Assembly: GCA_017541995.1 (NCBI GenBank) | Contig: JAFXYD010000070.1 | Location: 508 to 64,507 of the forward strand | Direction: 5' to 3' | DNA from: Oscillospiraceae bacterium | GTDB taxonomy: Bacteria > Bacillota > Clostridia > Oscillospirales > Oscillospiraceae | Length of the DNA: 64,000 bases | In this document: positions 27,665-60,688 of the stretch, in pieces | Numbering within the stretch: the stretch's first letter is position 1 | How the letters are laid out: each line of letters starts with the position of its first letter | Notes under the pieces: generated by a model | The model's database searches: none | Told to the model about the DNA's origin: nothing | Seen by the model: only the letters and a program-made list of their open reading frames with translations | Made by a program: the position numbers and the translations under genes

Positions 27665-27767
27665 GTAGGGGCCGATGCCCACATCGGCCCTGACACATCA
27701 GGGTACGAAGGGCCGATGTGGGCATCGGCCCCTACGGCGCGCCAAATCCCGATTTGCGGGATTCACC
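27665..27767. repeat. nested palindrome (perfect 26-bp inverted repeat, each arm itself a hairpin) plus CAAATCCCGATTTGC hairpin module
   Basis: GTAGGGGCCGATGCCCACATCGGCCC (27665-27690), 19-nt spacer, GGGCCGATGTGGGCATCGGCCCCTAC (27710-27735). Then GCCAAATCCCGATTTGCGGGATT. Confidence 0.9.
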
Positions 27768-28599
27768 CCAGCGCCGCGGCCAGCAGGGGCAGCAGGGCTT
27801 CCAGCTCCGCCTGGGGGCCGCGCAATTCGAGGATGGTCACGGCGCCGTCCTCCTCCTTGGCCAGGGCGGCCCGGGAGGCATCGCCCTGCGGGGCGGGACC
27901 CCAGCAGCGCAGGGCGCCGTCGTCGGCCCTCCGGCATTCGGCGTAGTCCGCGGCGGCCTGGTTGAGAAAGCGGTCTGTGATCCAGTCAGAGCCCCTGTGG
28001 ACGTTCAGCCACAGATTGGTTTCACCGCAGCCCAGTTGGGTACGCAGGCTGTATTCCAGCAGGGTCCGGGAGCCCTCCACGCTGTCCGGAAGGCTGAGGG
28101 GCAGGCCGCTCTGCTCCAGGGCAGCGACGGTTTGAAGGTAGGCCGCGTCCCGGGAGGCGTCCTGCCGGGCGCTGCGAAGCTGATAGCCGAAGAGCAGGAA
28201 GGCCGCAGCCACGCAGAGGATCATCATGGCGCTTCCCAGCTTTTTGCTGCGCTCGGACCAGTGCTCCCGGCGGCGCTTCAGCAGCCGGTGAACCAGCACG
28301 GCTCCAAAGCCCAGCAGATAGGGAATGGCTGCCACGCTGACGAAGAGCAGGTTGCTTCGGAGCTCCTCCAGGGAGGCAGCCCCGGGGAAGCAGAGGCTGC
28401 GGATCAGGGTATAGAGGCAGAACAGGCCGATGAGGGACAGCATGCTCAGCAGAAACACGCTGCCCATCCGGCGGCTCTTTTCCTGGTTTTCCGCCCGCTG
28501 CTGCCGGAGGCTCTGCTCCTGGGCGGCCTGGGCCCGGGCCTTCTTCAGCGCCTGTTTGTTGACCGCATAGCGAATATCTCCGCTCTGTTTCTTTGCCAT
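27763..28599 (-). CDS. hypothetical membrane protein
   Basis: Start chosen at MAKKQSGDIRY (28599), just after the pepT stop. Four predicted TM helices. No recognised family. Confidence 0.5.
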   Translation of the reverse strand: MAKKQSGDIRYAVNKQALKKARAQAAQEQSLRQQRAENQEKSRRMGSVFLLSMLSLIGLFCLYTLIRSLCFPGAASLEELRSNLLFVSVAAIPYLLGFGAVLVHRLLKRRREHWSERSKKLGSAMMILCVAAAFLLFGYQLRSARQDASRDAAYLQTVAALEQSGLPLSLPDSVEGSRTLLEYSLRTQLGCGETNLWLNVHRGSDWITDRFLNQAAADYAECRRADDGALRCWGPAPQGDASRAALAKEEDGAVTILELRGPQAELEALLPLLAAALG

Positions 28600-28609
28600 G
28601 ACGGAGCCC

Positions 28610-29845
28610 TCAGCGCTTGGTGAGATGGATGAGAATTTCCACGTTCTTGGCCATGGAGCCCACGGGGACGAACTCAAAGCGCCCGTGGGCGTTCTCGTAG
28701 CCCGCGGAGAGATTGGGGCAGGGCAGTCCCCGGAAGCTCAGAGAGGAGCCGTCGGTGCCGCCCCGGAAGGGCTCGGACCTGGGCTCCAGCCCGGCGGCCC
28801 GGATGGCCTCCTCCAGATCCTCCACCAGGAAGGGATAGGCGGAGAGCACCTCGCCCATGTTGCGGTACTGCTGGCGGAGCTCCACCGTCACCCGTTCCTC
28901 CCCCAGCCGCTCGTTGAGCATCCTGGCGTAGAGCTGCAGCATGTCCTGCCGGACCTGGAACTGCATCGCGTCAAAGTCCCGGATGATGAGGCGAATTTCG
29001 GCCTTCTCGCAGTCGGCCTGCACGGAAGTCACGTAGTAGAAGCCCTCGGTGCCGGAGCTGTACTGGGGCTTCTCCTGCCGGGGCAGGCTGGAGAGAAAGT
29101 CCCCGGCCAGATCCGCTGCATTGATCATGATGCCCTTGGCTGTGGCGGGGTGGACGCTGCGGCCTGTGATGCGGACCAGGGCCTCGGCGGCGTTGAAGGT
29201 CTGATCCTGATACCAGCCCAGGTGGTCGCCGTCGACGGTATAGGCAAACTTGGCCCCCAGCTTGTCCAGATCCAGATCCCGGGCCAGGCCCCCCACCTCC
29301 TCGTCGGGGGTGAAGGCCAGGCAGATGCTGCGGTGGGGCTGCTCCGGGTGGTCGGCGTAGAACTCCGCCAGGGTCATCAGAGCCGCGATGGCGGCCTTGT
29401 CGTCGCCGCCCAGCAGGGTGGTGCCGTCGGTGAGCACCAGATCCTGGCCGACGTACTGCTCCAGATTGGGGTAGTCCGCCGCGTGCATGACGATGTTTTC
29501 TTCTTTGTTCAGCACAATGTCGCCGCCGGGGTAGGCCCGCAGCACCCAGGGCTTCACGTCCCGGCCCTTTACGTCGGGAGCGGTGTCCAGGTGGGCGATG
29601 AGGGCGATGGGCCGATCCTCCGTCACGTGGGCGGCGGGGAGCCAGCCGTAGACCAGGCAGTGCGCCTCGTCGTACCAGGCCCGGATGCCCAGGGCGTGAA
29701 GCTCCTTGTAGAGCAGCTTCGCCAGATCCCGCTGGCAGTCGGTGGTGGGCCATACGCCCTCATAACGGCCGGACTGGGTGGTGACGGCGGCATAGCGCAG
29801 CAGCCGATCCTCTGTCTGCCGGTAAAACTCGGGATGTTCAACCAT
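28610..29845 (-). CDS. pepT: peptidase T (tripeptide aminopeptidase, M20B)
   Basis: IALIAHLDTAPD, GGDDKAAIAALM, FTPDEEVG, GGTDGS motifs. 411 aa. Confidence 0.85.
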   Translation of the reverse strand: MVEHPEFYRQTEDRLLRYAAVTTQSGRYEGVWPTTDCQRDLAKLLYKELHALGIRAWYDEAHCLVYGWLPAAHVTEDRPIALIAHLDTAPDVKGRDVKPWVLRAYPGGDIVLNKEENIVMHAADYPNLEQYVGQDLVLTDGTTLLGGDDKAAIAALMTLAEFYADHPEQPHRSICLAFTPDEEVGGLARDLDLDKLGAKFAYTVDGDHLGWYQDQTFNAAEALVRITGRSVHPATAKGIMINAADLAGDFLSSLPRQEKPQYSSGTEGFYYVTSVQADCEKAEIRLIIRDFDAMQFQVRQDMLQLYARMLNERLGEERVTVELRQQYRNMGEVLSAYPFLVEDLEEAIRAAGLEPRSEPFRGGTDGSSLSFRGLPCPNLSAGYENAHGRFEFVPVGSMAKNVEILIHLTKR

Positions 29846-29933
29846 ATCTGTATTCCTCCGAAGGATGCATTCTTTTTCATTGTATTGCAGCTTTATTCTA
29901 TTATTATAATGGAAGCCGCGGGAAAAGTCAATG

Positions 29934-31238
29934 TCAATCCGCAGCCTGGCATAGGGCGGGATCCGCCAGCACAGTCAGCAGCCTGCGCAGGCTCAGAAAG
30001 AAATTCACCAGATGGGACAGGCAGTAGGTGAAGACGTAGCCCCCCATGCCGAAGACAGGCAGCAGCAGCCAGAGCCCCAGCACGTCGATGACGTTGGTGA
30101 AGCTGTTGCAGCGCACCAGATACAGCTGCTGGCCCAGCCCCTTTTGCAGGCCGTCCACCATGGCGTCGGGGTAGAGAAAGAGCACCATGGGGGCGAAGAT
30201 CCGCAGATAGCGTCCCGCCTGGTCGCTGCCGAAGAGGGCCCGGCCCAGGAGGCCGCCCCCCAGCCAGAGCAGAGCGCAGACGCCCAGGGCGTAGAGGGCC
30301 GTGAGGAGCAGACTTTTCCGCACCAGGGCCCGCAGCCGCCGCCGCTCGCCCCGGGCCGTCAGCCGGGAGAGCTCCGAAATCAGCAGCTCGCTCAGGGAAA
30401 ACAGCAGCTCCGCCGGAAACCAGAGCAGGGGAAAGACCATGCCGGAGACGGTTCCGTAGGCCGCCAGGGCGGCGGAGCGGGAGCCGCTTGCCTCCAGACC
30501 CCGGGGGATCAGAAACTGCTCCACAGAGCCCAGACCGGAGCGGAGGCAGTCGTTGAGCCCCAGGGGCAGGGCCAGCTCCGACACCCGGGGCAGAGGGCCC
30601 CGGGGCGGCAGGCTCCGCAGCAGCCGCAGATACAAAACGAGAAAGCAGAGGGCCCCGGTGCCGTAGGAGCCCGCGATGACGGCCCGGCAGGCCCGGGCGG
30701 GGTCGGGCCCCGCGGCGGCCAGCAGCAGGAGGGTGAGCCCCAGGCTGAGGCCCCGTTCCGCCAGCTCCACCGCCACCAGCTCCCGCAGCCGCCCGCAGGC
30801 GGTGAAGGCCGCCCGGACGCAGCCCGCCAGAATGGGCCAGGGCAGCAGCAGGCCCAGCAGTCTCAGGGCCGGGGCCGTCCGGGAATCCCGCAGCAGAAGG
30901 AGACTGACGGGCCCTGCCAGCAGGATCAGCCCCGCCCCCACGGCGGCGCTGCACAGCAGGGCATAGCGCAGGCAGGCAAAGAGGGCAGCGCCCACGCCCG
31001 CCCCGTCCCCCCGGCCCCAGGCCCGGGCCGTGAGCTGCAGGGCCGCCGTCCGGGCTCCGGCGGCCCCCAGGGTCCCGGCGAAGCCTCCCACCGTGAGAAT
31101 CAGCTGCAAAAGCCCCATGCCCTCGGCCCCCACCCGGGTTGCCAGCAGGGACTGAAACAGCAGTCCCAGCCCCCGCAGCGCCAGGCCGCTGAGGGTCAGC
31201 AGCAGGGTGCCCTTCACCAGCGTCCGTCCCTTGCCCAT
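29934..31238 (-). CDS. MOP-superfamily oligosaccharide flippase (SpoVB/polysaccharide biosynthesis protein-like)
   Basis: N-terminus MGKGRTLVKGTLLLTLSGLALRGLGLLFQSLLATRVGAEGMGL, about 12 TM helices. Confidence 0.65.
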   Translation of the reverse strand: MGKGRTLVKGTLLLTLSGLALRGLGLLFQSLLATRVGAEGMGLLQLILTVGGFAGTLGAAGARTAALQLTARAWGRGDGAGVGAALFACLRYALLCSAAVGAGLILLAGPVSLLLLRDSRTAPALRLLGLLLPWPILAGCVRAAFTACGRLRELVAVELAERGLSLGLTLLLLAAAGPDPARACRAVIAGSYGTGALCFLVLYLRLLRSLPPRGPLPRVSELALPLGLNDCLRSGLGSVEQFLIPRGLEASGSRSAALAAYGTVSGMVFPLLWFPAELLFSLSELLISELSRLTARGERRRLRALVRKSLLLTALYALGVCALLWLGGGLLGRALFGSDQAGRYLRIFAPMVLFLYPDAMVDGLQKGLGQQLYLVRCNSFTNVIDVLGLWLLLPVFGMGGYVFTYCLSHLVNFFLSLRRLLTVLADPALCQAAD

Positions 31239-31277
31239 GGCATCCCCTCCCCGGACAGCCTATGCGCCGCCGGGAGC

Positions 31278-31445
31278 GGAAATGCGCAAATCGGGATTTG
31301 GCGAGTTCTCGCAAACGTCCGGTAGCGGCGCACATTGCAAACGCCCTGTAGCGGCGCACACCAGTGCGCCACGAGACCGGGTTCCGGTGGCGCACTGGTG
31401 TGCGCCGCTACGGGAGCGTTTTGCCAAATCCGAATTCGCGCATCG
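31278..31445. repeat. mosaic palindromic element, copy A (core IR 31348-31411)
   Basis: GTAGCGGCGCACACCAGTGCGCCAC-GAGACCGGGTTCC-GTGGCGCACTGGTGTGCGCCGCTAC, flanked by CAAATCGGGATTTGG and CAAATCCGAATTCG modules. There is also an extra half arm at 31322. Confidence 0.9.
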
Positions 31446-31506
31446 GTATAGAACCGGTGACTGGTGGACATACTCCCTGTAAAACCAAATATTGGGAGGA
31501 ATCGTA

Positions 31507-32097: not shown

Positions 32098-32103
32098 CAG
32101 ACG

Positions 32104-32240
32104 GAGACAAATTCGGATTTGTCGAGACGTTCCCGTAGCGGCGCACACCAGTGCGCCACGAGACCGGGTTCCAGTGGCGCACTGGTGTGCGCCGCTACCG
32201 GACGTTTGCGAGAACTCGCCAAATCCCGATTTGCACAAAC
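32104..32240. repeat. mosaic palindromic element, copy B (core IR 32135-32198), inverted relative to copy A
   Basis: Same 25-bp arms and spacer as copy A. Right flank GTGCGCCGCTACCGGACGTTTGCGAGAACTCGCCAAATCCCGATTTGC is the exact reverse complement of the left flank of copy A. Confidence 0.9.
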
Positions 32241-32283
32241 GCAAGAGGCAGCGGTTTCGCTGCCTCTTGCGCTGCTTTTCTGT

Positions 32284-37231: not shown

Positions 37232-37335
37232 GTTGAAAATTGAAAATGGAAAATTGAAAGCTTTCGGAGTTTTTCAGATCGCGATCTGAAAAACACATTC
37301 ATTTTCAATTTTCAACTTTTCATTTTCAATTTTTT
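37232..37335. repeat. heptamer-armed hairpin element (TTGAAAA type), copy 1; fills the whole trxB/PPase spacer
   Basis: Left arm GTTGAAAATTGAAAATGGAAAATTGAAAG, inner palindrome GTTTTTCAGATCGCGATCTGAAAAAC, right arm CATTTTCAATTTTCAACTTTTCATTTTCAATTTTTT. Confidence 0.9.
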
Positions 37336-39740: not shown

Positions 39741-41223
39741 AGGAATCGGGTGATTGGATGAAACAATATAACGTAACGGGCATGAGCTGCGCCGCCTGCT
39801 CGGCCCGGGTGGAAAAGGCGGTGAAGGGGGTTCCCGGGGTGGAATCCTGCGCCGTGAGCCTGCTGACGAATTCCATGGGCGTGGAGGGCAGCGCCGATCC
39901 CGCCGCCGTCATCGCCGCCGTCACCGAGGCGGGCTACGGGGCCTCCCTGAAGGGGGCCGCCGACGGCGCCCGGAGCGTCCCCCAGGCCGCCGACGCCCTG
40001 GCGGACACCGAGACCCCCAGGCTGAAAAAGCGCCTGCTCTGGTCCCTGGGCTTTCTGCTGGTTTTGATGTATTTCTCCATGGGCCATATGATGTGGGGCT
40101 TCCCCCTGCCCAAATGGTTCGAGGGAAACCACGTGGCCATGGGCCTGGTCCAGCTGCTGCTGGCGGCCGTCATCATGGTAATCAACCAGCGCTTCTTCAT
40201 CTCCGGCTTCAAGGCCCTGCTGCACCGGGCCCCCAACATGGACACCCTGGTGGCCATGGGCTCCGGGGTCTCCTTCCTCTGGTCGGTCTGGGTGCTCTTT
40301 GCCATGACCCGGGCCCAGCTGGACGGGGACGCCGCCGCGGTGGAGGGCTATATGATGGAGTTCTACTTCGAGTCCGCCGCCATGATTCTGACGCTGATCA
40401 CCGTGGGCAAGCTGCTGGAGGCCCGGTCCAAGGGCAAAACCACCGACGCCCTCAAGGGGCTGATGAAGCTGGCCCCCCAGACCGCCGTGGTGCTGCGAAA
40501 CGGCGTGGAGACCACGGTGCCCGTGGCCCAGGTGCAAAAGGACGATCTGTTCGTGGTGCGGCCCGGGGAGGCCATCCCCGTGGACGGGGTGGTGGTAGAG
40601 GGCAGCTCCGCCGTCAACGAGGCCGCCCTCACCGGGGAGTCCATCCCCGTGGACAAGGCCCCCGGGGACCTGCTCTCCGCCGCCACGGTGAACCAGTCCG
40701 GCTTCCTGAAGGCCCGGGCCACCCGGGTGGGGGAGGACACCACCCTCTCCCAGATCATCAAAATGGTCTCCGACGCCGCCGCCACCAAGGCCCCCATCGC
40801 CAAGGCCGCCGACAAGATCTCCGGGATCTTTGTCCCTGTGGTCCAGGCCATCGCCCTGGCGGTGACGGGGATCTGGCTGCTGGCGGGGCAGGACTTCTCC
40901 TACGCCCTGGGCCGGGGCATCTCCGTGCTGGTGATCTCCTGTCCCTGCGCCCTGGGTCTGGCGACCCCCGTGGCCATTATGGTGGGCAACGGCGTGGGGG
41001 CCAAAAACGGCATTCTTTTCAAAACCGCCGTCTCCCTGGAGCAGACCGGCAAGGTGAAGATCGTGGCCCTGGACAAGACCGGCACCATCACCACCGGCCA
41101 GCCCGCCGTGACGGACATCCTGCCCGCCCCCGGCGTCAGCCAGGCGGAGCTCCTGGCCGCCGCCGTGGCCCTGGAGGAAAAGAGCGAGCATCCCCTGGCG
41201 AAGGCGATTGTGGGATATGCCGA

Positions 41224-41272
41224 GGGATCGGGGATCAGGGACCAGGGATCAGGGATCAGGGATCGAGGATTG
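41224..41272. repeat. heptanucleotide tract (GGGATCR) x 6-7 inside copA
   Basis: GGGATCG GGGATCA GGGACCA GGGATCA GGGATCA GGGATCG AGGATTG. Confidence 0.9.
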
Positions 41273-41393
41273 CAGAACTGAGCGACTTCCGGGCTCTGCC
41301 GGGGAACGGGCTGGAGGCCCTGCTGGAGGGCAGGCCTCTCATAGGCGGCTCGGTGAAATTCATCACGGAGCGGCTCCGGGCGGCAGGGGATAC

Positions 41394-41463
41394 GGGCCCT
41401 TCGGCTCCGCTGCGCTCCGCTCAGGACGACAAACCCGAAGCCGTTTCCCCCGTCCTTCGGGCC
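41394..41463. repeat. repeat module sharing a 26-nt identical core with the rluB insertion
   Basis: CTCCGCTGCGCTCCGCTCAGGACGAC at 41405-41430 is identical to 47713-47738. Translated in frame as PSAPLRSAQDD. Confidence 0.85.
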
Positions 41464-42099
41464 AAGGCCGACGAGCTGGCCGCCCAGGGCAAGACCCCCC
41501 TGCTCTTTGCCCACGGGGATCGGCTGCTGGGCCTCATCGCCGTGGCGGACGTCATCAAGCCCGAGAGCCCCGCAGCGGTGAAAGAGTTACAGAATATGGG
41601 CGTTAGAGTTGTTATGTTAACCGGCGACAACGAGCGCACCGCCCAGGCCATTGCCGCCCAGGCGGGGGTGGACGAGGTGGTGGCAGGCGTCCTGCCCGAG
41701 GGCAAGGAGGCCGTGATCCGGGAGCTGCAAAGCCGCGGCCCCGTCCTCATGGTGGGCGACGGCATCAACGACGCCCCGGCCCTGACCCGGGCGGACGTGG
41801 GCAGGGCCATCGGCGCGGGGGCCGACGTGGCCATCGACGCCGCCGACGTGGTGCTGATGAAGAGCAAGCTCAGCGACGTGCCCGCGGCCCTGCGGCTGAG
41901 CCGGGCCACCCTGCGGAATATCCACGAAAACCTCTTCTGGGCCTTCCTCTACAACAGCATCGGCATCCCCCTGGCGGCGGGGGCCTTCGTCAAGGCCTTC
42001 GGCTGGACCATGAACCCCATGTTCGGGGCCGCCGCCATGAGCCTGTCCAGCTTCTGCGTGGTGACCAACGCCCTGCGGCTGAATTTCGTGAAGCTGCAT

Positions 42100-42152
42100 A
42101 AAAGCCTTCCCCTTGAGGGGAAGGTGGCCCCGCAGGGGCCGGATGAGGTGGC
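42100..42152. repeat. R7-type double-hairpin repeat translated in frame between the CopA core and the C-terminal HMA domain
   Basis: AAAAGCCTTCCCCTTGAGGGGAAGGTG + GGCCCCGCAGGGGCC + GGATGAGGTGGC. Reverse-complement homologue of 5562-5625. Confidence 0.85.
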
Positions 42153-42384
42153 TCCCCCGGAAGAGAGCGGCATCGTGATCCAGGTTAAGGGCATGATGTG
42201 CCACAACTGCGAGCGCCACGTGCAGGAGGCCCTGGAGGCCCTGCCCGGGGTGGAGTCCGCCCGGGCGGATTTCCGGACTGGCCTGGTGGAGCTCCGGGGC
42301 GCCGCCTCCGAGGCGGAGCTCAGGCAGGCCGTCAAAGGCGCGGGGTACAAGTTCCGGAAAATCGTGGGCTGAGGCCGACAAATC

Positions 42385-42568
42385 AATGAAAATATGAAAC
42401 TATGAAAAAATGAAAATATTATGGTATTTTCCATATCTTCGATATGGAAAATGGTATTTCAAATCGTCCCGAAGGGACACCGAAATAGTTTCATAATTTC
42501 ATATTTTCATAGTTTCATTCTCCCCGTCAAATCCCGATTTGCACATTTTTGCGCAAATCGGGATTACG
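42385..42568. repeat. heptamer-armed hairpin element (ATGAAAA/TGAAACT type) followed by a CAAATCCCGATTTGC inverted repeat
   Basis: Arms 42385-42420 and 42484-42519 are imperfect reverse complements. Inner hairpins ATTTTCCATAT/ATATGGAAAAT and GTCCC-GAA-GGGAC. Then CAAATCCCGATTTGC...GCAAATCGGGATT. Confidence 0.85.
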
Positions 42569-44194: not shown

Positions 44195-44819
44195 GGAGCT
44201 TGCCCGCATCTGCGAGGCCATTCTGTTTGCCGCCGGGGAGCCGGTGGAGACGGAGCGGCTCTGCTTTGTCACCGAGACCGACCCCGAGGAGCTCCGGGCC
44301 GTCATGAAGGAGCTCATGGATCTCTACGCCTTTGAGCGCCGGGGCATTCGGATCCTGCGGCTGGAGGACAGCTGGCAGATGTGCTCTCAGAACGACCTGG
44401 CCCCCTGGGTCACCAAGGCCCTGGAGACCCGGAAGCCCCCCAAGCTCTCCGCCTCCCAGCTGGAGACCCTGACCATCATCGCCTACTACCAGCCCACCAC
44501 CAAGGCCTTCGTGGAGAAGCTCCGGGGGGTGGACAGCTCCTATTCCGTCTCCGCGCTTCTGAATAAGAAGCTCATCGAGGAGAACGGCCGCCTGGAGGCC
44601 CCGGGCCGCCCCATCCTCTACCGCACCACCCCGGACTTCCTCCGCACCTTCGGCCTGGAGTCCCTGGAGGAGCTGCCGGAGATGGAGAAGGTGAACTTCG
44701 CCGCTGCCTCTGAGGAGGCAGCGGAGGCAACAGGCAACAGGCAACAGGCAACAGGGGAGCAGGCAACAGGGGATGCCTCCCTACGGAAGCACGCAGACGG
44801 GAAGGAGGACGGGGTATGA
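44184..44819 (+). CDS. scpB: SMC-Scp complex subunit ScpB, with repeat-encoded C-terminal tail
   Basis: ICEAILFAAGEPV ... LSASQLETLTIIAYYQPTTKAFVEKLRGVDS. Tail ATGNRQQATGEQATG is encoded by (GCAACAG)n. Confidence 0.85.
   Translation: MDHKELARICEAILFAAGEPVETERLCFVTETDPEELRAVMKELMDLYAFERRGIRILRLEDSWQMCSQNDLAPWVTKALETRKPPKLSASQLETLTIIAYYQPTTKAFVEKLRGVDSSYSVSALLNKKLIEENGRLEAPGRPILYRTTPDFLRTFGLESLEELPEMEKVNFAAASEEAAEATGNRQQATGEQATGDASLRKHADGKEDGV
44727..44779. repeat. (GCAACAG)x3 plus degenerate units and a CCCTACGG end, inside the scpB 3' end
   Basis: Perfect units at 44727-44747, then GGGAGCAGGCAACAGGGGATGCCTCCCTACGG. Confidence 0.85.
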
Positions 44820-47042: not shown

Positions 47043-47957
47043 ATGAAAGAACGACTGCAAAAGCTCATCGCCGCCGCGGGGCTCTGCTCCCGGCGGACGG
47101 CGGAGGAATGGATCATCCAGGGCAAGGTCACCGTGGACGGGGACCTTGCCCGGCTTGGCGATACGGCGGACCCGGAGCGGAACGAGATTCTGGTGGAGGG
47201 CCGCCCTCTGCCCGCCGCCCCGGCCAAAACCACCACCGTTCTGCTGAACAAGCCCCGGGGGGTGGTCACCACCCTCTCCGACGAGAAGGGCCGCCCCACC
47301 GTGGCCCGGCTGCTGCCCCCGGAGCTGGGGCGGCTCTACCCCGTGGGCCGTCTGGACCAGTTCTCCGAGGGCCTGCTGCTGATGACCAACGACGGCGAGC
47401 TGGCAAACCGCCTGACCCACCCGGCGGGGGAGGTCCGCAAGACCTACCGCCTCTGGGTCTCCGGCTGGCATGAGGAGGCCCTGGCCCTGCTCCGGCGGCC
47501 CATCGAGCTGGACGGGTATCGGATCAAGCCGCCGGAGGTGCGGCTGGTGTGGGTGCGTCAGGCAACAGGCAACAGGCAACAGGCAACTGGGGACGCACCC
47601 GTCCGTAGCGGCGAGCATTGCTCGCCACAGGAACCCCGCTCCGATGAGGCAACAGGGCAGGGAATCGGGAATCGGGAATCGGGAATCGGGGACGCGGGAA
47701 CGGGTCCTTCGACTCCGCTGCGCTCCGCTCAGGACGACGGATCCGAAACGAGGGCGCACATAGCCACCGCCCTGCTGGAGATCACCATCCACGAGGGGCG
47801 GAATCGGCAGATCCGCCGCATGGCCCAGGCCGCAGGCCTCACCCCCACCCGCCTCCAGCGCGTGGCTGAGGGCCCCATTACCCTGGGGGATCTGAAGCCC
47901 GGCCAGTGGCGGGAGCTGAGCGAAGCGGAGCTTCGGGAATTGAGAATTGAGAATTGA
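47043..47957 (+). CDS. rluB: RluB-like rRNA pseudouridine synthase (S4 domain + RsuA/RluB catalytic domain) carrying a ~65-aa repeat-encoded insertion and a repeat-encoded C-terminus
   Basis: S4 domain RLQKLIAAAGLCSRRTAEEWI. Catalytic GRLDQFSEGLLLMTNDG. HEGRNRQIRRM. Last residues RELRIEN* lie in the GAGAATT array. Confidence 0.8.
   Translation: MKERLQKLIAAAGLCSRRTAEEWIIQGKVTVDGDLARLGDTADPERNEILVEGRPLPAAPAKTTTVLLNKPRGVVTTLSDEKGRPTVARLLPPELGRLYPVGRLDQFSEGLLLMTNDGELANRLTHPAGEVRKTYRLWVSGWHEEALALLRRPIELDGYRIKPPEVRLVWVRQATGNRQQATGDAPVRSGEHCSPQEPRSDEATGQGIGNRESGIGDAGTGPSTPLRSAQDDGSETRAHIATALLEITIHEGRNRQIRRMAQAAGLTPTRLQRVAEGPITLGDLKPGQWRELSEAELRELRIEN
47556..47760. repeat. composite insertion of four repeat modules inside rluB
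   Basis: (GCAACAG)x3+1 at 47562-47589. GTAGCGGCGAGCATTGCTCGCCAC hairpin. (GGGAATC)x4 at 47660-47687. 26-nt core at 47713-47738. Confidence 0.85.
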
Positions 47958-48021: not shown

Positions 48022-49368
48022 ATGAACGAATACGACGTAATCGTAATCGGCGGCGGGGCCGCCGGGATGTTTGCCGCCGTCCAGGCGGGCTACGCCGGGG
48101 CCAGGGTCCTGCTGCTGGAGCCCAACGAGCGCCTGGGCAAAAAACTGTATATTACGGGGAAGGGCCGCTGCAATCTCACCAACAACTGCTCCTGGCAGGA
48201 GGTGCTGAAAAACGTACCCACCAATCCCCGCTTTCTGTATTCCGCCCTGTCGGGCTTTACGCCGGAGGATACGATCAGCTTTTTTGAGTCCCACGGCTGC
48301 GAGACCAAGACGGAGCGGGGCAACCGGGTCTTTCCGGTGTCCGACAAGTCCGCCTCCGTGGTGGATGCCCTGAAGACCGCCCTGGGCTACGCCGGGGTGG
48401 AGATCCGCCGGGCAAGGGCGAAAGAGCTGCTCGTCGAAAACGGGCACATTTCCGGGGTCCGCACGGACAGGGGGGACTATTTTGCCCCGGCCGTGATCCT
48501 GGCGACGGGCGGCAAATCCTACCCCGCCACCGGCTCCACCGGGGACGGCTGCCGCATGGCGCAGGCCCTGGGCCACAGCATCGTGCCCCCCGTGGGCTCC
48601 CTGGTGCCCCTGGTGGAGGAGGGGGACTGCTGCGCCAAAATGCAGGGCCTGGCCCTGCGGAATATCAGCATTCGGCTGTATGAATGTACCGACGGGGCAA
48701 CAGGCAACAGGCAACAGGCAACAGATCCAGACTGTCATTCCGAGCGAAGCGAGGAATCCGTTTCCCCTTCCTCCGTCCCCTGTGCGACCCACGCCAAGCC
48801 CGTCTTTGAGGAATTCGGGGAGCTGCTCTTCACCCACTTCGGCCTCTCCGGGCCGGTGATCCTCTCCGCCTCGGCCCACATGGAAGCAGGGAAGGCGTAC
48901 ACGGTTGAGATCGACCTGAAGCCCGCCCTGGACGAGGCCACCCTGGACGCCCGGATCCTCCGGGACTTTGCCGCGGCCAAGAACCGCAGCTTCGAGAACG
49001 CCCTGTCGGGCCTCTACCCCAAGACCCTGATCCCCGTGATGGTGGCCCGCTCCGGCATCCCCGGCGACACTAAGGTGAACGCCGTCACCAGGGAGCAGCG
49101 CCGGGCCCTTCTGGAGCTCACCAAGCACTTCACCGTGGCAATCCGGGGCAAGCGCCCCGTGGAGGAGGCCATCGTCACCTCCGGCGGCGTTTCCGTGAAG
49201 GAGATCGACCCGAAAACCATGGAAAGCAAGCTGGTCCCCGGCCTCTACTTCGCCGGGGAAGTCATGGACGTGGACGCCTACACCGGCGGCTTCAACCTGC
49301 AAATCGCCTGGAGTACGGGCTACGCCGCCGCCCAGGCCGCTGTAAAAGGAACAGGTAATAAGGAATAA
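48022..49368 (+). CDS. HI0933/YhiN-like NAD(P)/FAD-dependent oxidoreductase with a repeat-encoded internal insertion
   Basis: YDVIVIGGGAAGMFAA, ITGKGRCNLTN, LFTHFGLSGP, C-terminal YFAGEVMDVDAYTGGFNLQ. Start at ATG 48022, because the listed extension is repeat-encoded. Confidence 0.8.
   Translation: MNEYDVIVIGGGAAGMFAAVQAGYAGARVLLLEPNERLGKKLYITGKGRCNLTNNCSWQEVLKNVPTNPRFLYSALSGFTPEDTISFFESHGCETKTERGNRVFPVSDKSASVVDALKTALGYAGVEIRRARAKELLVENGHISGVRTDRGDYFAPAVILATGGKSYPATGSTGDGCRMAQALGHSIVPPVGSLVPLVEEGDCCAKMQGLALRNISIRLYECTDGATGNRQQATDPDCHSERSEESVSPSSVPCATHAKPVFEEFGELLFTHFGLSGPVILSASAHMEAGKAYTVEIDLKPALDEATLDARILRDFAAAKNRSFENALSGLYPKTLIPVMVARSGIPGDTKVNAVTREQRRALLELTKHFTVAIRGKRPVEEAIVTSGGVSVKEIDPKTMESKLVPGLYFAGEVMDVDAYTGGFNLQIAWSTGYAAAQAAVKGTGNKE
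48694..48795. repeat. (GCAACAG)x4 plus GTCATTCCGAGCGAAGCGAGGAATC hairpin module, in frame inside the oxidoreductase gene
   Basis: Perfect units at 48697-48724. Translated GATGNRQQATDPDCHSERSEESVSP. Confidence 0.85.
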
Positions 49369-49405
49369 GGATAATTCTCAACTCTCAATTCTCAATTCTC
49401 AATTC
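49347..49405. repeat. two abutting heptamer arrays (degenerate AGGAATA x4, then TTCTCAA x4) spanning the oxidoreductase stop codon
   Basis: AGGAACA GGTAATA AGGAATA AGGATAA TTCTCAA CTCTCAA TTCTCAA TTCTCAA. TAA stop at 49366-49368. Confidence 0.85.
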
Positions 49406-49421: not shown

Positions 49422-50108
49422 ATGGACAAGTTTATTTCCGTCGCCATTGACGGGCCTGCCGGGGCGGGGAAGAGCACCATCGCCCGGCGGGTGGCCCGGG
49501 AGCTGGGCTATCTCTACGTGGACACCGGGGCCATCTACCGCACCGTGGGCTACCACATGAGCCTCATGGGCATCGGCCCCAAGGACAGGGACGGCATCGA
49601 GCGCTGCATCGACGATGTGAATATCCAAATTGACTACCAGGACGACGGGATTCAGCACATGATCCTCAACGGCCAGGACGTGACGGAGCTGATCCGAACC
49701 CCGGAAATGTCCAAAATGGCCTCCGGGGTGGCGGCCCAGAGCTGCGTCCGGGACTACCTGCTGGACATGCAGCGCAGCCTGGCCCGTACCCACAACGTGG
49801 TAATGGACGGCCGGGACATCGGCACCGTGGTGCTGCCCCAGGCCACCGTCAAGGTCTTCCTCACCGCCTCCGCCGAGGTCCGGGCGGACCGCCGCTTCAA
49901 GGAGCTGACGGCCAAGGGGGAGCAGGTCAAATACGAGGACGTGTACGTCGACATTGTCAAGCGGGATGAACAGGACATGAACCGGAAGATCGCCCCTCTG
50001 AAGTGCGCCGACGACGCGGAGGTTCTGGACTGCTCCCAGCTGAGCATCGACCAGGTGGTGGCGGAGATGAAGGCCATCATCCGAAAGAAGGCGAGCAGCC
50101 ATGAATGA
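49422..50108 (+). CDS. cmk: (d)CMP kinase
   Basis: ISVAIDGPAGAGKSTIARRVARELGYLYVDTGAIYR. Confidence 0.9.
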   Translation: MDKFISVAIDGPAGAGKSTIARRVARELGYLYVDTGAIYRTVGYHMSLMGIGPKDRDGIERCIDDVNIQIDYQDDGIQHMILNGQDVTELIRTPEMSKMASGVAAQSCVRDYLLDMQRSLARTHNVVMDGRDIGTVVLPQATVKVFLTASAEVRADRRFKELTAKGEQVKYEDVYVDIVKRDEQDMNRKIAPLKCADDAEVLDCSQLSIDQVVAEMKAIIRKKASSHE

Positions 50109-50814
50109 GGCAACAGGCAACAGGCAACAGGCAACAGAGACCGTAGGGGCGGCCATTGGCCGTCCGCCCGAGGCAGCCGGGAAGAAGCCGAAGAAGAAGG
50201 AATACGGCAACGGCTTTGCCGTCCGATACATCTATCCCATTCTCTGGTGGATTCTGCGGATTGTCCTGTCTCTGTACCATTGGTCCAGCTTCCGGGGCCG
50301 GGAGAATCTGCCGGAGGGACCCTGCGTGATCTGCGCCAACCACTCCGGCTTCGCGGATCCGCTTTGGGTCTTCCTGCTGATGAAGACCCGGATGCCGCCC
50401 TGGACCATGGCCCGGAAGAGCCTCTTTGAGAAGCCGATCTTCGGCCGCTTTCTGGCGGCCTTTCGGGCCTTCCCGGTGGACCGGGACCACGCGGACATGG
50501 CCGCCGTCAAGAAATCCCTCTCCGTGCTGAAGAACGGGGAGAAGCTGCTGATCTTCCCAGAGGGAACCCGGGTGAAGAAGGGCAAGAAGTCCGAGCCCAA
50601 GTCCGGGGCGGTGCTCCTGGCCCAGCGGGCCGGGGTGCCCTTGGTGCCGGTGTACATCACCCACGGCCGCAAGCCCTTCCAGCCCATCCGGGTCATCATG
50701 GGCGAGGCCTACACCCCCGCCTACTCCTCCCGCCGCCCCGACTCCGAGGAGTTGGAGCGGCACACGGCGGAGCTGATGGAACGCATTTACGAGATGGGGG
50801 AAGCATCGAAATGA
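50101..50814 (+). CDS. plsC: 1-acyl-sn-glycerol-3-phosphate acyltransferase with repeat-encoded N-terminal extension
   Basis: ICANHSGFADP (NHxxxxD) and FPEGTR. The only in-frame start is ATG 50101 (ATGAATGA overlap with cmk), so the repeat is translated. Confidence 0.8.
   Translation: MNEATGNRQQATETVGAAIGRPPEAAGKKPKKKEYGNGFAVRYIYPILWWILRIVLSLYHWSSFRGRENLPEGPCVICANHSGFADPLWVFLLMKTRMPPWTMARKSLFEKPIFGRFLAAFRAFPVDRDHADMAAVKKSLSVLKNGEKLLIFPEGTRVKKGKKSEPKSGAVLLAQRAGVPLVPVYITHGRKPFQPIRVIMGEAYTPAYSSRRPDSEELERHTAELMERIYEMGEASK
50110..50172. repeat. (GCAACAG)x4 plus CCGTAGGGGC-type hairpin at the 5' end of plsC
   Basis: Perfect units at 50110-50137, then GACCGTAGGGGCGGCCATTGGCCGTCCGCCC. Confidence 0.85.
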
Positions 50815-55305: not shown

Positions 55306-55549
55306 TTATTTATTCAAGATTTTAGGACAAGAACCGCGCTATCTTGCAGGGACGCAACGCTGCCGACTGCCGCAGACGATCCCTTTGCGGGCGGAGAAAA
55401 AGAATAACTGCCAAATCACTTTTGAATTGAGATAGATAATTATGAAAAAATATTCAAATTGCTCAATATATTTATTGCTTTTCTCCTAAAACTATGGTAA
55501 AATTGCAGTACAGATAGTTTCTGGATTTAGTAAAAAACGAAGGGATTGG

Positions 55550-57076
55550 TTGATTTTGAAATACAAAATAGTCAGTTTTATCTTGGCTGTTCTCATCATT
55601 ATCACTATGCCAATAGCGTCTGTTGCAGCTTCAATTTTTTCAGATGTTCCTGATTATTCTTATTATCATGATGCTGTATATTGGGCATATAACCAAGGGA
55701 TTACCACTGGTACCAGTTCCAACACATTCTCTCCGAATAACAATCTCACACGAGCTCAGGTAGTCACTTTTCTGTGGAAATTAGCGGGCGGCCCGATGGG
55801 ATACCAAAACTATGCCACTCAGTTTTCGGATGTGAGTGCAAATGCCTATTATTTTAATGCAGTTGGCTGGGCGGCATACTTTGGTATAACAAGTGGTACA
55901 AGTACAGGACAGTTTTCGCCAAATGCAGTTGTAAAGAATAAAGAAACGGTTACTTTCATTTATAAGGCTGTTCAAAGTCATCAAATAACTTGCCTTTCCA
56001 CAACAGCAGGTTCTCTTTCGAATTTGAACGCGGATCCTTCAGCGTGGTATTATAGTGCTTGTGTTTGGGCCAACAATCAAGGCTATCTCGCTTGTGTTCC
56101 CGAATTTGAGAATGAATTCCAACCAAACAGCAATACAACCAGAGCGATTGCCATTTATCTCCTTTGGGAGTTGAAAACTGGCTCCTGCAAAGTAAGCCTT
56201 TCCGTTAATTCTGGAACAGGAATCACTACCGTAACCCTTAGCGGAAGAACCGGTAATCAAGTGAGTGGTTATTACACCAAAGGTGCTACTTTTCCTGTCA
56301 GCTGCATGCCTTCAAGCGGTTACGAATTTGACAGATGGATGGAAGGCGGTCAGCAAATCGGCACCCACAATCCGAGTGCTATTACTGCAAATGGAAACCG
56401 TACTTGGATAGCTGTAGGAAAGCAACTCTCACCAATAGAGGTAATGATACAGTCTGCTGAGGCAGAGTGTGGAAATCATCAATCAGCAAATCCAGGATAT
56501 AATATAAATGCAGATTGGTGTGCTGCTTTTTCGAGTTGGTGCGCATATACGGCAGATTTAGCGAGTTATAATTATGTTACAATTGCTCAATATTCAACGG
56601 GTACGCTGTATTACTACACCTCAAATTTGAGCACCCCAATCAATTATACATATCCAGTTTTAAGGCACGGAGCATGCACTCAGCAGGTTGCCCATTTCTG
56701 TGAGCAAGGGCATATGTATGTCTCAAGGAGTGTTTATCAAGGGGATTGGTACAGTGAGGGTACAGGAGGTTGGAATTGGAGTAATGCCACACTATATACT
56801 TCTTCCTTTACCCCAAAAAGAGGAGACTTTGTTTTCTTTGACTGGAATAATACCGATTGCTATGCAAATCATGTTGGGATAATTACAGCTGTGGAAAGAA
56901 ATGGAAATTTAGTCACAATTACCTCTGTCGAAGGAAACATCAACGGAAATGGTTCTTATAACAATAGTGTAGTCGGATTCGTTACCCGAACATATAATGC
57001 TGCATCCAATTCTCTAATTGTTTCCGGCGATCATAGCAACAACGGTTATATACTGGGTTTTGGAAGAATCGGATAG
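55550..57076 (+). CDS. cell-wall hydrolase: 3 SLH domains + Listeria-Bacteroides repeat + C-terminal CHAP/NlpC-P60-like domain
   Basis: FSDVP..YYHDAVYWAYNQGITTGTS..FSPNN.LTRAQ repeated three times. YEFDRWMEG. WCAAFSSWCAY ... ANHVGIIT. Gene is AT-rich relative to its surroundings. TTG start uncertain. Confidence 0.7.
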   Translation: MILKYKIVSFILAVLIIITMPIASVAASIFSDVPDYSYYHDAVYWAYNQGITTGTSSNTFSPNNNLTRAQVVTFLWKLAGGPMGYQNYATQFSDVSANAYYFNAVGWAAYFGITSGTSTGQFSPNAVVKNKETVTFIYKAVQSHQITCLSTTAGSLSNLNADPSAWYYSACVWANNQGYLACVPEFENEFQPNSNTTRAIAIYLLWELKTGSCKVSLSVNSGTGITTVTLSGRTGNQVSGYYTKGATFPVSCMPSSGYEFDRWMEGGQQIGTHNPSAITANGNRTWIAVGKQLSPIEVMIQSAEAECGNHQSANPGYNINADWCAAFSSWCAYTADLASYNYVTIAQYSTGTLYYYTSNLSTPINYTYPVLRHGACTQQVAHFCEQGHMYVSRSVYQGDWYSEGTGGWNWSNATLYTSSFTPKRGDFVFFDWNNTDCYANHVGIITAVERNGNLVTITSVEGNINGNGSYNNSVVGFVTRTYNAASNSLIVSGDHSNNGYILGFGRIG

Positions 57077-57218
57077 CTGATACAGAAACTAAAATAATCT
57101 ACTTTACAAAATGGGGAGATGCCTGGTACTATTTAGTGCAGAGGCTGTTTCCGAAAAGCTGATACGCAGAATGCAGAAGGTGAAAAACCAGAGTTTCAGA
57201 AAGGATGTGAGATCATTC

Positions 57219-57824
57219 ATGAAAAAGATGCTTATTGTGGTTCTTGTGCTCTTATTGACAGCTTCCGTTTTGGTCGGCTGCAAAAGTTCTGTTCGCCCCA
57301 GTGCAGCCGCACCGAAAACGCCCGCCTCTTCCTCCGCGAACGAGCAGGAGGCAGCCGGCTCTGTACAGACAGAAACGGAGCAAGCAACAACGGTCATTCC
57401 TTCGGATGCAAGCGATTCCGATCCGATCCTGCCGGAAGAGATGACAATGGAAGAGATTGAGGCGGAGCTGGGGTTTGGCTATCAGCTTCCTGACGTCAGC
57501 GAGCATAACGGGAAGATTCAATGCGCAGCTGATAATGGGACGCTGGCCTTAGGCTATACCTCAGATGAATTTGTCGGACGGGTTGTGATCTGGAAGTCTG
57601 TGAAGACCGATCAGGATGTCTATGCTTCCTGGGATCAATGGCCGGAATCCGGACAAGAAACCGTAGAAGGGGTTCAGGTTCGCTTTCGCGGCAATTCCCC
57701 GGATTACAAGGGGATTGCCTTTTGGACGCAGGACGGCTATCAATATGTTATGAACTGCGAAACCGCTCCCGGCTCAGATATCATGAGCATTCTGCCGTTA
57801 TTCATCGAAGATAAGCAAAATTAA
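57219..57824 (+). CDS. hypothetical lipoprotein
   Basis: MKKMLIVVLVLLLTASVLVGCKS lipobox. No recognised family. Confidence 0.55.
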   Translation: MKKMLIVVLVLLLTASVLVGCKSSVRPSAAAPKTPASSSANEQEAAGSVQTETEQATTVIPSDASDSDPILPEEMTMEEIEAELGFGYQLPDVSEHNGKIQCAADNGTLALGYTSDEFVGRVVIWKSVKTDQDVYASWDQWPESGQETVEGVQVRFRGNSPDYKGIAFWTQDGYQYVMNCETAPGSDIMSILPLFIEDKQN

Positions 57825-57830
57825 GCAGAC

Positions 57831-57876
57831 AGCCACTCGCAAGCATGCTTCAGACAATGCTTGCGGGTGGCTTTTT
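57831..57876 (+). terminator. rho-independent terminator
   Basis: AGCCACTCGCAAGCAT...ATGCTTGCGGGTGGCT followed by TTTTT. Confidence 0.8.
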
Positions 57877-58109
57877 ACTGAGCTTCCATAGAAACACTTA
57901 ATCTATTCCGGCGGGAATCGTGCCATACTTCGTTGTCGTCCTCGCCGGGCATCAGCCCGCCTGCGTCCTCCGTCTCGTCTGGCGCAATTCCTGCTTGAAA
58001 TACTTTTTGACATAGATTCCTGTAATGGGGAGCAGACGAAAGACGGTGCCGCTCTGATACACAAGATCGCGGGACCATCCAAAAACACTTGCTTGTCAAA
58101 TATTTTCCC

Positions 58110-58138
58110 TTGACAAACCCGGCGGGATGTGCTATACT
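58110..58138 (+). promoter_or_regulatory. sigma-A type promoter of the ylxM-ffh operon
   Basis: TTGACA, 17 nt, TATACT. Confidence 0.7.
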
Positions 58139-58182
58139 GGGCAAGCTGTCAATGGAAAGACTTTGACAAGGAGGCGCGCCCC

Positions 58183-58533: not shown

Positions 58534-58537
58534 GAAA

Positions 58538-59902: not shown

Positions 59903-60068
59903 GTTGAAAATTGAAAATTGAAAGTTGAAAGTTTCGGAATCGTTCAAATTGCCATTTGAACGATGAAAAAGAAAGATTCGACTTTCAATTCGCAGATCAT
60001 TCCTGTTTTTCAGATGGCAATCTGAAAAACACCCCCATTTTCAATTTTCACCTTTCAACTTTCAATTC
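59903..60068. repeat. heptamer-armed hairpin element (TTGAAAA type), copy 2, starting right after the ffh stop
   Basis: Shares arms, TTTCGGA and TTTTTCAGAT-N4-ATCTGAAAAACAC with 37232-37335. Carries about 65 extra nt, including the hairpin ATCGTTCAAA-TTGCCA-TTTGAACGAT. Confidence 0.9.
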
Positions 60069-60131
60069 GACCCGCACAGGGTTTCGATAAAAACAAAAAC
60101 AAATTATATTATCAAACAAGGAGATATCACC

Positions 60132-60371
60132 ATGGTTAAGATCAGACTCAGAAGAATGGGCGCCAAGAAGAACCCCTACTACCGCATCGTTGTCGCTGAC
60201 TCCCGCAGCCCCCGTGACGGCCGCTGCATCGAGGAAATCGGCACCTATGATCCCCTGGCCAACCCCGCTGCCATTACTGTGGACGCCGAGAAGGCGCAGG
60301 CCTGGATCAAGAACGGCGCTCAGCCCACCGATACCGTCAGAGGACTGCTGAAGAAGGCCGGCGTTCTGTAA
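60132..60371 (+). CDS. rpsP: 30S ribosomal protein S16
   Basis: [31 protein letters not shown]. Confidence 0.95.
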
Positions 60372-60388
60372 GAACCGAGGGCTGAACG

Positions 60389-60616
60389 ATGAAGGAACTG
60401 TTGCTCTATATCGCCCGCAACCTGGTGGAGCATCCGGAGCAGGTCACGGTGGAGTCCATTGAGGGCGACCCCCTGGTCCTGGAGCTTCGTGTTGCCCCCG
60501 AGGATATGGGCAAGGTCATCGGCCGCAGCGGCCGGATCGCCAAGGAGATCCGGGCCATCATGAAGTCCGTCGCCCAGAGACAGGGCGTCCGCGTCAGCGT
60601 CGAGATCGTAGACTAA
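60389..60616 (+). CDS. KH domain RNA-binding protein (YlqC/UPF0109)
   Basis: EDMGKVIGRSGRIAKEIR. Conserved position between rpsP and rimM. Confidence 0.85.
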   Translation: MKELLLYIARNLVEHPEQVTVESIEGDPLVLELRVAPEDMGKVIGRSGRIAKEIRAIMKSVAQRQGVRVSVEIVD

Positions 60617-60624
60617 GCCAAAAA

Positions 60625-60655
60625 GGGCTGCTGCTGTGAGGCAGCGGCCCTTTTT
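60625..60655 (+). terminator. rho-independent terminator/attenuator
   Basis: GGGCTGCTGC-TGTGAG-GCAGCGGCCC followed by TTTTT. Confidence 0.75.
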
Positions 60656-60658
60656 GGC

Positions 60659-60688
60659 AATTGAGAATTGAGAATTGAGAATTGAGAG
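60659..60688. repeat. (AATTGAG)x4 single-arm heptamer array upstream of rimM
   Basis: AATTGAGAATTGAGAATTGAGAATTGAGAG. Same unit as 47936-47960. Confidence 0.9.

Follow-up and report, generated by a model that had tools for sequence, protein, structure and literature searches.

How do the same short repeats come to lie both in the spacers between genes and inside the reading frames of housekeeping enzymes? The question is raised by a 64,000-nt stretch of DNA (hereafter the window) from a member of the Oscillospiraceae (assembly GCA_017541995.1, contig JAFXYD010000070.1, positions 508 to 64,507), in which a preliminary description had distinguished six classes of repeat module: stop-free heptamer arrays (i), heptamer arrays serving as hairpin arms (ii), palindromes with CCGTAGSGGC ends (iii), small hairpins (iv), double hairpins (v) and a 26-nt core (vi). 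We found all six at or near the positions described, some coordinates being off by 0–5 nt, and far above chance. As had been proposed, a small set of modules is reused in varying order, in the style of mosaics of repetitive extragenic palindromes (REPs) or bacterial interspersed mosaic elements (BIMEs). Overall the observation is confirmed and its interpretation supported in part. The region probably represents a lineage-specific repertoire of small repeats in uncultured rumen Oscillospiraceae, composed of REPs, other tagged hairpins and arrays resembling the STRRs (repetitive sequences made up of short tandem repeats) of cyanobacteria, and shaped by spread, slippage and selective filtering. 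Comparison with related genomes shows gain and loss between close relatives, recurrence at permissive sites across species and length changes in steps of 7 nt. Loci from other assemblies and metagenomes are cited below by numbers with the prefix L.

Heptamer arrays and GTAG-tagged hairpins in the window and its relatives

Tandem arrays of 7-nt units occur with several unit sequences. (GCAACAG)4 is present at 44727, 47562, 48697 and 50110, on the + strand every time, and a search for (GCAACAG)3 with at most one mismatch returned eight overlapping 21-mer matches at four loci compared with 0.00 expected from 100 shuffles. (GGGATCR)6 is found at 41224 and (GGGAATC)4 at 47660, arrays of GAGAATT at 49373, at 60659 and, as an inverted pair, at 47936/47976, and inverted pairs of TTGAAAA at 37233/37301 and 59903/60037. 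Exact tandem arrays of at least three copies number nine with period 7 and none with periods 5, 6 or 8–11; a census of 13-mer repeats was dropped, being swamped by codon-bias words. Tandem Repeats Finder detected 14 period-7 arrays of at least three copies in the window (64 kb), 51 in 186 kb from close relatives and nine in 1.15 Mb from distant Oscillospiraceae/Faecousia, with no enrichment of other periods in the same comparison. Heptamer arrays and the GTAG-tagged REPs described below are about 30-fold commoner in this clade than in relatives and sister genera. Because period 7 alone is enriched, over dozens of different units, we regard the arrays as a trait of the clade that is specific for length and not for sequence.

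The arrays are also similar in copy number, with a median of 4.4 and 4–5 units in 51 of 78 arrays. Rehm et al. tied a preference for four units to G-quadruplexes and saw no link to mobile elements (PMC4692102). In the window and loci L006–L019 only 9 of 80 units contain GGG or CCC, and the clustering at 4–5 units holds whatever the G content; a G-quadruplex account of the four-unit preference cannot be general. The GCAACAG unit is not private to the lineage, because at least 120 metagenome contigs, spanning a GC content of 32–73%, contain (GCAACAG)3. Termite-gut contigs (L107, L110, L117, L119, L125, L127, L147, L150, L156, L158 and L165) carry (GCAACAG)8–17 together with the AT-rich flank GCAATTATACACATCTTCTAAATAATCGAGTCAACTATC; these arrays are a separate family in unrelated low-GC organisms.

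The palindromes of module iii are GC-rich stem-loops with a stem of 7–9 bp, a loop of 3–4 nt and GTAG immediately 5', and are GTAG-tagged REPs as defined in PMC3733652. CCGTAGSGGC occurs in the window in five exact copies (0.35 expected), and partners with mismatches complete the inverted pairs 27663/27737, 31346/31413 and 32133/32200. Such stem-loops lie at 27665, 27710, 31348, 31389, 32135, 32176 and 47605, with a further, imperfect copy at 50143. With a fixed detector (GC-rich stem-loop, stem of at least 7 bp, loop of 3–8 nt, directly after a tetranucleotide) we counted seven GTAG stem-loops in the window and 68 in the 186 kb of close relatives, compared with 0–7 for the control tags CTAC, GATG, GTGA, AGTG and GGTA. 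The 12 found in the 1.15 Mb of distant relatives are at background level. Over 250 kb of the clade the density is patchy at about 0.1–0.37 per kb, with none in the 10 kb past the window end.

The three inverted pairs have the arrangement of REP doublets forming hairpins (REPINs; PMC3116915). Their spacers measure 14–19 nt, and each of the three dimers folds as one long hairpin; the fold energy was −66.4 kcal/mol for the dimer at 27663..27737 (z = −10.3 compared with shuffles) and −88 kcal/mol for the composite at 31281..31445 (z = −7.4). Two of the three are nested in an outer palindrome made from module iv, whose sequence CAAATCCCGATTTGC is exact at 27743, 31286, 32220 and 42528 and degenerate at 31425, 32108 and 42553. 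Nesting of dimers in longer palindromes is known from the REP dimers of Anabaena and Halothiobacillus (PMC3733652). L211 has a third copy of the composite, placed between dacB and rluB at a point occupied by 10 nt in the window; it amounts to a single whole-doublet event with ends not defined. Folding generally separates the two kinds of location: intergenic hairpins fold much better than shuffles (z from −5.5 to −10.3), and intragenic mosaics do not (z about −1).

Filled and empty sites within genes

One filled site is a loop of rluB, in which the window carries a 201-nt in-frame mosaic (Table 1). Six rluB orthologues without the mosaic read ...WQRDG-(I/T)ALLEITIHEG... at this point. The mosaic is missing in L211, whose flanks are 97% identical, and is present in L019 (about 85% at the protein level), with unchanged unit counts in its pair of arrays. 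Between the window (47505–47765) and L019 (5870–6130) the insert is 92–100% identical and the flanks about 80% (empty site, L211 3020–3100). In L015 the same loop holds a different mosaic of (AATGCAR)8 followed by six tandem GTAG REPs. At 3004–3321 and 4114–4500 in L015, heptamer arrays lead into 6–9 tandem GTAG REPs in head-to-tail order, the periods being 32 and about 63 nt; one such cluster lies in the translated frame of rluB, and the 3' end of rluB is present a second time, in part, at 5174–5299.

Other genes were colonised as well. In the HI0933-like protein, two loops hold unrelated inserts in five species and are empty in five others, and the scpB tail site has unrelated sequence in L211 and L213. 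For CopA, empty sites were judged only against PDB homologues, because orthologues are non-syntenic in the fetched loci. With the 68-residue insert peptide a homologue search gave no scorable candidate, and an exhaustive search of a 1.84-billion-protein library returned six hits, three of them with the same modules: these otherwise unrelated proteins carry ATGNRQQATG, VRSGEHCSP, GPSxPLRxAQDD and GSGIRDQGSG in other orders, and one is a 964-residue protein without a Pfam match. Read in the coding orientation, intragenic units are free of stop codons and specify hydrophilic residues (GCAACAG is read as ATGNRQQ, GGGAATC as GNRESGI); their complements would encode segments of the type LLPVACC, and AT-rich units carry TGA. 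Such stop-free units fit survival by selection rather than targeted insertion.

Group I and II introns, inteins, CRISPR arrays and translational bypass were considered for the inserts and rejected, as sizes are wrong, the period is 7 without spacers and the open frame is kept. Removal or bypass would make needless the open frame that every intragenic copy retains. Like miniature inverted-repeat transposable elements, the repeats have inverted arms; the target-site duplication of such elements is not visible at filled/empty pairs.

The 26-nt core (at 41405 and 47713) and the hairpin in the HI0933-like gene share a CGTC or TGTC tag, a co-varying 5-bp stem (GTCCT/AGGAC, ATTCC/GGAAT) and a GAGCGRAGCG-type loop, and resemble CGTC-tagged REPs. 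A scan for CGTC/TGTC with 5-bp stems gave 58 matches and was too permissive to inform. In an unrelated metagenome, the high-GC contig L091 (about 11839–11950) has (GCAACAG)8 and then a textbook CGTC-tagged hairpin, CGTC ATTGCGAGGGGCCC GGAA GGGCCCCGAAGCAAT. Module v is recognised by CCTTCCCCTTGAGGGGAAGG at 5597 and 42105; its copies at 5562 and 42104 have their ends in common and differ in the inner hairpin.

We propose, as the best-supported account, that REP-type modules spread as non-autonomous DNA. The agent would likely be a single-strand Y1 (HUH) enzyme of the REP-associated tyrosine transposase (RAYT) type encoded elsewhere in the genome, and/or recombination or template switching between copies. 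Arrays would grow and shrink by replication slippage, and hairpin arms would be kept matched by quasipalindrome template switching or by selection on pairing. Selection would then filter intragenic insertions, the survivors being frame-keeping, stop-free and hydrophilic, placed in loops or termini and presumably translated as extra loops. AT-rich arrays, with TGA in one orientation, would stay intergenic, where, as probable transcribed RNA hairpins at the ends of genes, they may act in 3'-end protection, termination or decoupling.

Several points weigh against this account. The search for a Y1/RAYT gene was negative in the window (Pfam scan of about 50 open reading frames, ORFs), in agreement with the preliminary description, and likewise in its 10-kb extension and across 2.08 Mb of loci (10,297 ORFs, phmmer with E. 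coli RayT); the ORFs between REP clusters in L008 are ylxM-ffh and no RAYT. Clostridia do have Group 1 RAYTs (PMC5581495). Comparison of orthologous loci, suggested earlier as a way to define the elements, yielded the empty sites, and no target-site duplication or clean element end could be defined at the polymorphic sites. The discordance between insert and flanks in rluB, with the closer relative L211 lacking the insert, means that simple vertical descent is insufficient, so that recombination, conversion or precise loss has to be invoked. The CGTC/TGTC hairpins have stems of 5 bp instead of 8–9 bp and loops of 11–22 nt instead of 4–5 nt (PMC3733652). Slippage alone leaves both the period of 7 and the length of about four units at any G content unexplained. 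Finally, translation of the inserts and a role of the hairpins as RNA are both predicted from sequence.

Table 1. Repeat-derived features and their positions in the window
Positions	Strand	Feature	Location and remarks
5562..5621	-	Module v copy: CCTTCCCCTYRAGGGGAAGG + second hairpin + CGGATGAGGTGGC	Intergenic, 3' of ABC-F gene
27663..27737	.	GTAG REP head-to-head dimer, REPIN-like: GTAG GGGCCGATG CCCA CATCGGCCC	Intergenic
27741..27762	+	Module iv small hairpin CAAATCCCGATTTGC	Adjoins REP dimer
31281..31445	.	Composite nested palindrome: outer GCAAATCGGGATTTGG... arm, partial REP 31320, GTAG REP dimer 31348–31411, degenerate outer arm	
32108..32240	.	Second composite copy, REP dimer 32135–32198	Opposite side of rubrerythrin gene
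37233..37333	-	AT-rich hairpin, (TTGAAAA)n / (TTTTCAA)n arms, inner hairpin GTTTTTCAGATCGCGATCTGAAAAAC	DHH pyrophosphatase gene to trxB; z = −5.5
41224..41265	+	(GGGATCR)6 array	In copA; one unit fewer than six other assemblies
41395..41445	-	CGTC-tagged hairpin with 26-nt core, read ...PLRSAQDDK...	In frame, copA N-domain
42100..42152	+	Module v double hairpin	In frame, copA linker before C-terminal HMA domain
42386..42518	+	Hairpin with 8-nt-unit arms (ATGAAAAT / ATAGTTTC), two inner hairpins	3' of copA; z = −8.2
42528..42567	.	Module iv inverted pair CAAATCCCGATTTGC ... GCAAATCGGGATT	
44725..44790	+	(GCAACAG)4 + degenerate units + reversed GTAG-like end (CCTCCCTACGG)	scpB C-terminal tail
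47559..47765	+	201-nt in-frame mosaic: (GCAACAG)4, GTAG REP 47605–47626, (GGGAATC)4, CGTC-type hairpin with 26-nt core	rluB loop
47936..48008	+	(GAATTGA)4 / (TCAATTC)4 hairpin	Fills rluB to HI0933-like spacer; rluB stop in left arm; z = −6.5
48685..48795	+	111-nt in-frame insert: (GCAACAG)4, then TGTC ATTCC GAGCGAAGCGA GGAAT hairpin	HI0933-like gene (48022–49368)
49346..49405	+	(AAGGAAT)3.7 + (AATTCTC)4.7 arrays	HI0933-like to cmk spacer
50108..50170	+	(GCAACAG)4, then GTAG REP (GTAGGGGCGGCCATTGGCCGTCCGCCC)	cmk stop/plsC start; read as plsC N-terminal extension
59903..60067	+	(TTGAAAA)n / (TTTTCAA)n hairpin, inner hairpin of 37233 + one extra	ffh to rpsP; starts directly after ffh stop
60659..60687	+	(AATTGAG)4 single array	Between terminator-like hairpin and rimM

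Heptamer-armed hairpins, tag-side arrays and strain variation

Among the AT-rich hairpins with heptamer arms, the copies at 37233 and 59903 form one dispersed family, because they share arms and the inner hairpin GTTTTTCAGATSGCRATCTGAAAAAC. Another TTGAAAA-armed hairpin is present in L002 3' of ispH-rpsA, where the window reads CAGTTG-TCAAC. The hairpin that fills the rluB to HI0933-like spacer of the window has orthologues in L019, L007, L010 and L211. Its arm units differ by species yet remain complementary (GAATTGA/TCAATTC and AAATTGA/TCAATTT; AAGTTGA also occurs), its inner stem shows paired changes (TTTTTCAAAT/ATTTGAAAAA and TTTCGCAAAT/ATTTGCGAAA), and its centre has opposite orientations in different species and has been deleted in the window. 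In heptamer-armed hairpins the first-transcribed arm contains TGA in all three frames, and here it supplies the rluB stop. The arms at 42385, described earlier as ATGAAAA-like, do form an inverted pair (42386/42485); the unit is the octamer ATGAAAAT.

These hairpins could be selected RNA elements, such as terminators, RNase III or other processing sites or mRNA stabilisers, and not passive selfish DNA; the arm units would then co-vary because pairing is under selection. They lie between co-directional genes, starting at or within the upstream stop codon, and fold strongly, the spacer hairpin having been kept in five genomes with complementary changes in arms and inner hairpin. Comparable roles have been proposed for STRR hairpins (PMC2670836) and for REPs (PMC3733652). 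Presence of the hairpins nevertheless varies among near relatives, as does the state of the spacer centre, and the window scan gave no Rfam match for them. Matched arms would be accounted for by selection acting on the hairpin, as RNA or as DNA, or by quasipalindrome template switching, and the latter could do so alone. We hold the reading as RNA elements to be possible, at a tentative level; it is compatible with the repertoire account.

The position of arrays next to tags leads to a further alternative. Of the four GCAACAG arrays in the window, three are 6–22 nt away from a GTAG end, and a TGTC tag is 8 nt from the fourth. In the window and close relatives 25 of 74 arrays are at most 30 nt from a REP; after removal of REP-stem artefacts, 16–17 arrays face the tag and 4 the body. 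Autocorrelation of at least 0.7 at period 7 was seen in 7 of 75 5' flanks and 1 of 75 3' flanks, and never at periods 5, 6, 8, 9 or 10, the flank window including the tag and hence being slightly biased. In six loci of relatives GTAAYAA, GTAAGAR or GTGAGAA units run in phase up to GTAG. One relative's array grades from GTGAGAA through TTGAGAA and GTAAGAT into GTAG, which links the AT-rich GAGAATT family with tag-like units. A universal link between GCAACAG and GTAG REPs was discarded, as a strict REP is nearby in just 3 of 80 metagenome loci examined, all three high-GC. The relationship between array and tag is suggestive and possibly new, involving few loci and not universal; it is absent from the GTAG REP and REPIN papers (PMC3733652, PMC3116915).

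An enzyme linked to the tag (a RAYT-like Y1 nuclease or a tag-binding factor) might rejoin out of register and add 7-nt units, in which case the arrays would be a 'stutter' of REP processing. Besides the tag-facing arrays, the 5'-flank signal and the in-phase units, heptamer arrays increase and decrease in parallel with GTAG REPs over the clade, and the published heptamer-rich genomes of Xanthomonas and Nostoc/Anabaena host GTAG REPs too. On the other hand, no such enzyme was found, the AT-rich arrays of the window have no adjoining REP, and the in-phase cases are few and all in relatives. Nor is E. coli, which is rich in REPs and RAYT, known to have surplus heptamers. We consider this mechanism improbable. 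If it were true, the arrays would be fossil stutter that later drifted, spread and paired into hairpins, and the period of 7, the length of about four units regardless of sequence and the lineage specificity would be explained. The wider idea that addition of 7-nt units at the tag by REP machinery is the one cause of Nostocales STRRs, Xanthomonas GGGAATC arrays and Oscillospiraceae heptamers deserves equally little credence.

Strain variation was assessed at 18 loci from independent ENA and Logan assemblies (132 kb in total, BLAST btop parsing). Between these near-identical strains and the window, indels are confined to two arrays, with +7 in that of copA and +14 in that of AATTCTC upstream of cmk, where five other assemblies have two units more. 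With six GGGATCR units, copA (39758–42372) is split into two reading frames in the window; all six other assemblies have seven units and an intact CopA of 873 residues. Since 7 is not a multiple of three, gain or loss of units could switch a gene, here copA, on and off in part of the population. Such a contingency locus is very unlikely. The off-state was seen once and could stem from a mistake in the consensus or assembly of a repeat; in none of the strains compared is there variation in the arrays of rluB, the HI0933-like gene, scpB and plsC (the rluB counts are unchanged in L019 too), and the host genes are housekeeping and not surface or antigen genes. Rehm et al. in 2015 were likewise negative on a contingency role in Xanthomonas and Nostoc (PMC4692102).

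An origin of the repeats in assembly or binning (collapsed or chimeric reads), named beforehand as grounds for giving up the description, is effectively refuted: assemblies from short reads are prone to errors in short tandem repeats and the six-unit copA state occurs only in the window, but 18 independent metagenome loci match the window at 98.8–100%, the modules are present at 99.5–100% identity in at least ten independent assemblies (MEGAHIT-, SPAdes- and Logan-type), and several elements lie at orthologous sites in metagenome-assembled genomes (MAGs) of other species with the frame conserved.

The window has a GC content of about 64%. Pfam identified housekeeping and sporulation genes, namely spoIIID, copA, scpA/B, ytfJ, dacB, rluB, an HI0933-like flavoprotein gene, cmk and plsC; an ispH-rpsA fusion and ylxM-ffh-rpsP-rimM-trmD are also present, and one tRNA is the sole Rfam match. 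Among species representatives, Oscillospiraceae MAGs from rumen and gut come nearest, with an amino-acid identity of at most 92% in IspH-S1. At 110–3565 a MobL-type relaxase and a tyrosine integrase lie beside tRNA-Thr(CGT) at a GC content of 51–54%, probably an integrated mobilisable element. A low-GC island (46%) at 55400–58000 encodes an SLH/CHAP cell-wall protein and a 237-residue protein without a Pfam match. At 11200–14600 both strands carry very long ORFs, the GC skew is strongly negative and there are internal repeats (about 1 kb); the + strand product is rich in Thr, Ser and Tyr, and the - strand ORF has no Pfam match. About 5–7 kb past the window end (L224/L225 14705–16636), an OppC-type permease gene of 643 codons contains RCC1/WD40_RLD repeats, an unusual domain insertion.

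Significance and comparison with known systems

Heptamer repeats are a recognised peculiarity of bacterial genomes. The clade provides a third unrelated lineage in which heptamers can be studied, and one in which the trait switches on within one family; according to Rehm et al. in 2015 there was no detailed literature on heptamer repeats (PMC4692102). A length of about four units in sequences unable to form G-quadruplexes weakens the sole published functional idea. The region is also a natural case of insertion tolerance in surface loops of housekeeping enzymes, and a warning for the annotation of rumen MAGs, where such repeats give spurious ORF extensions, low-complexity 'domains' and frameshifts.

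The closest known systems are the GTAG REPs and REPINs (PMC3733652, PMC3116915). In common with them, the repeats have an unpaired GTAG at the end of a GC-rich stem-loop of 20–30 nt, sub-families with compensating stem changes, and head-to-head dimers that form long hairpins and can be nested; they also occur as tandem clusters, at unidirectional intergenic sites near an upstream stop and as in-frame intragenic clusters. They differ in that the host belongs to the Bacillota (the survey text of PMC3733652 names no Firmicutes), no cognate RAYT was found and arrays adjoin the tag side. In-frame mosaics, taken at first to be undescribed, have published counterparts in intragenic REP clusters of 43–82 residues, some of them in pseudouridine synthase genes (PMC3733652). 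The preliminary description was to fall if its modules matched a catalogued family with a known mobilising enzyme; half of this applies, because the family is catalogued and the enzyme was not found here.

The heptamer arrays resemble cyanobacterial STRRs in being dispersed 7-nt arrays with several unit families per genome, inverted-array hairpins and intragenic sites. STRR heptanucleotide arrays were reportedly described by Mazel in 1990, and one STRR unit, CAACAGT, is a single base from GCAACAG after rotation. Phylum and GC content differ (64% here), and the present arrays also lie inside protein genes and are tied to REP tags. As STRRs are assigned to heterocystous cyanobacteria and the host is a member of the Oscillospiraceae, the arrays are STRR-like in behaviour only. 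Heptamer-armed stems had been thought to have no formal description; they are preceded by STRR arrays of 7-bp units, which pair into hairpins in the spacers of co-transcribed genes (PMC2670836), and by the GGGAATC arrays of Xanthomonas, which have about four units, overlap stop codons and form 70–75 convergent pairs in each genome (PMC4692102). The likeness to the GGGNATC repeats of Xanthomonas and Nostoc extends to an identical GGGAATC unit, about four units, convergent pairs able to form stem-loops, positions within 50 nt of or overlapping a stop codon and length variation at conserved positions (PMC4692102). A difference is that the length distribution here is the same for units without a G-run.

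Small palindromes in frame in housekeeping genes, apparently translated as surface segments, with pseudouridine synthases among the hosts, recall Rickettsia palindromic elements (RPE) and intragenic REPs. RPE were reportedly described by Ogata in 2000. The sequence families are unrelated, and the inserts here mix module types including tandem heptamers. E. coli BIMEs are likewise mosaics of alternately oriented REPs and short motifs; the resemblance is in mosaic layout only. BIMEs, defined by alternating Y and Z REPs with set linker motifs and IHF or gyrase sites, are extragenic and without heptamer arrays. The Neisseria repeat dRS3 has the form ATTCCC-N8-GGGAAT, and the stem of the HI0933-like copy also begins with AT (TGTC ATTCC ... 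GGAAT). With the CGTC-tagged REPs (dRS3, RPE-4/6) the tagged hairpins share a CGTC or TGTC tag, and no dedicated transposase is known for that group (PMC3733652).

What is new is the Bacillota host clade, the repeated colonisation of rluB and HI0933-like loops with empty sites, the strain indels of 7 and 14 nt and the arrays on the tag side. The components are individually precedented in other phyla, and the repeats are a variant whose host lineage is new; they do not make up a system of a new kind.

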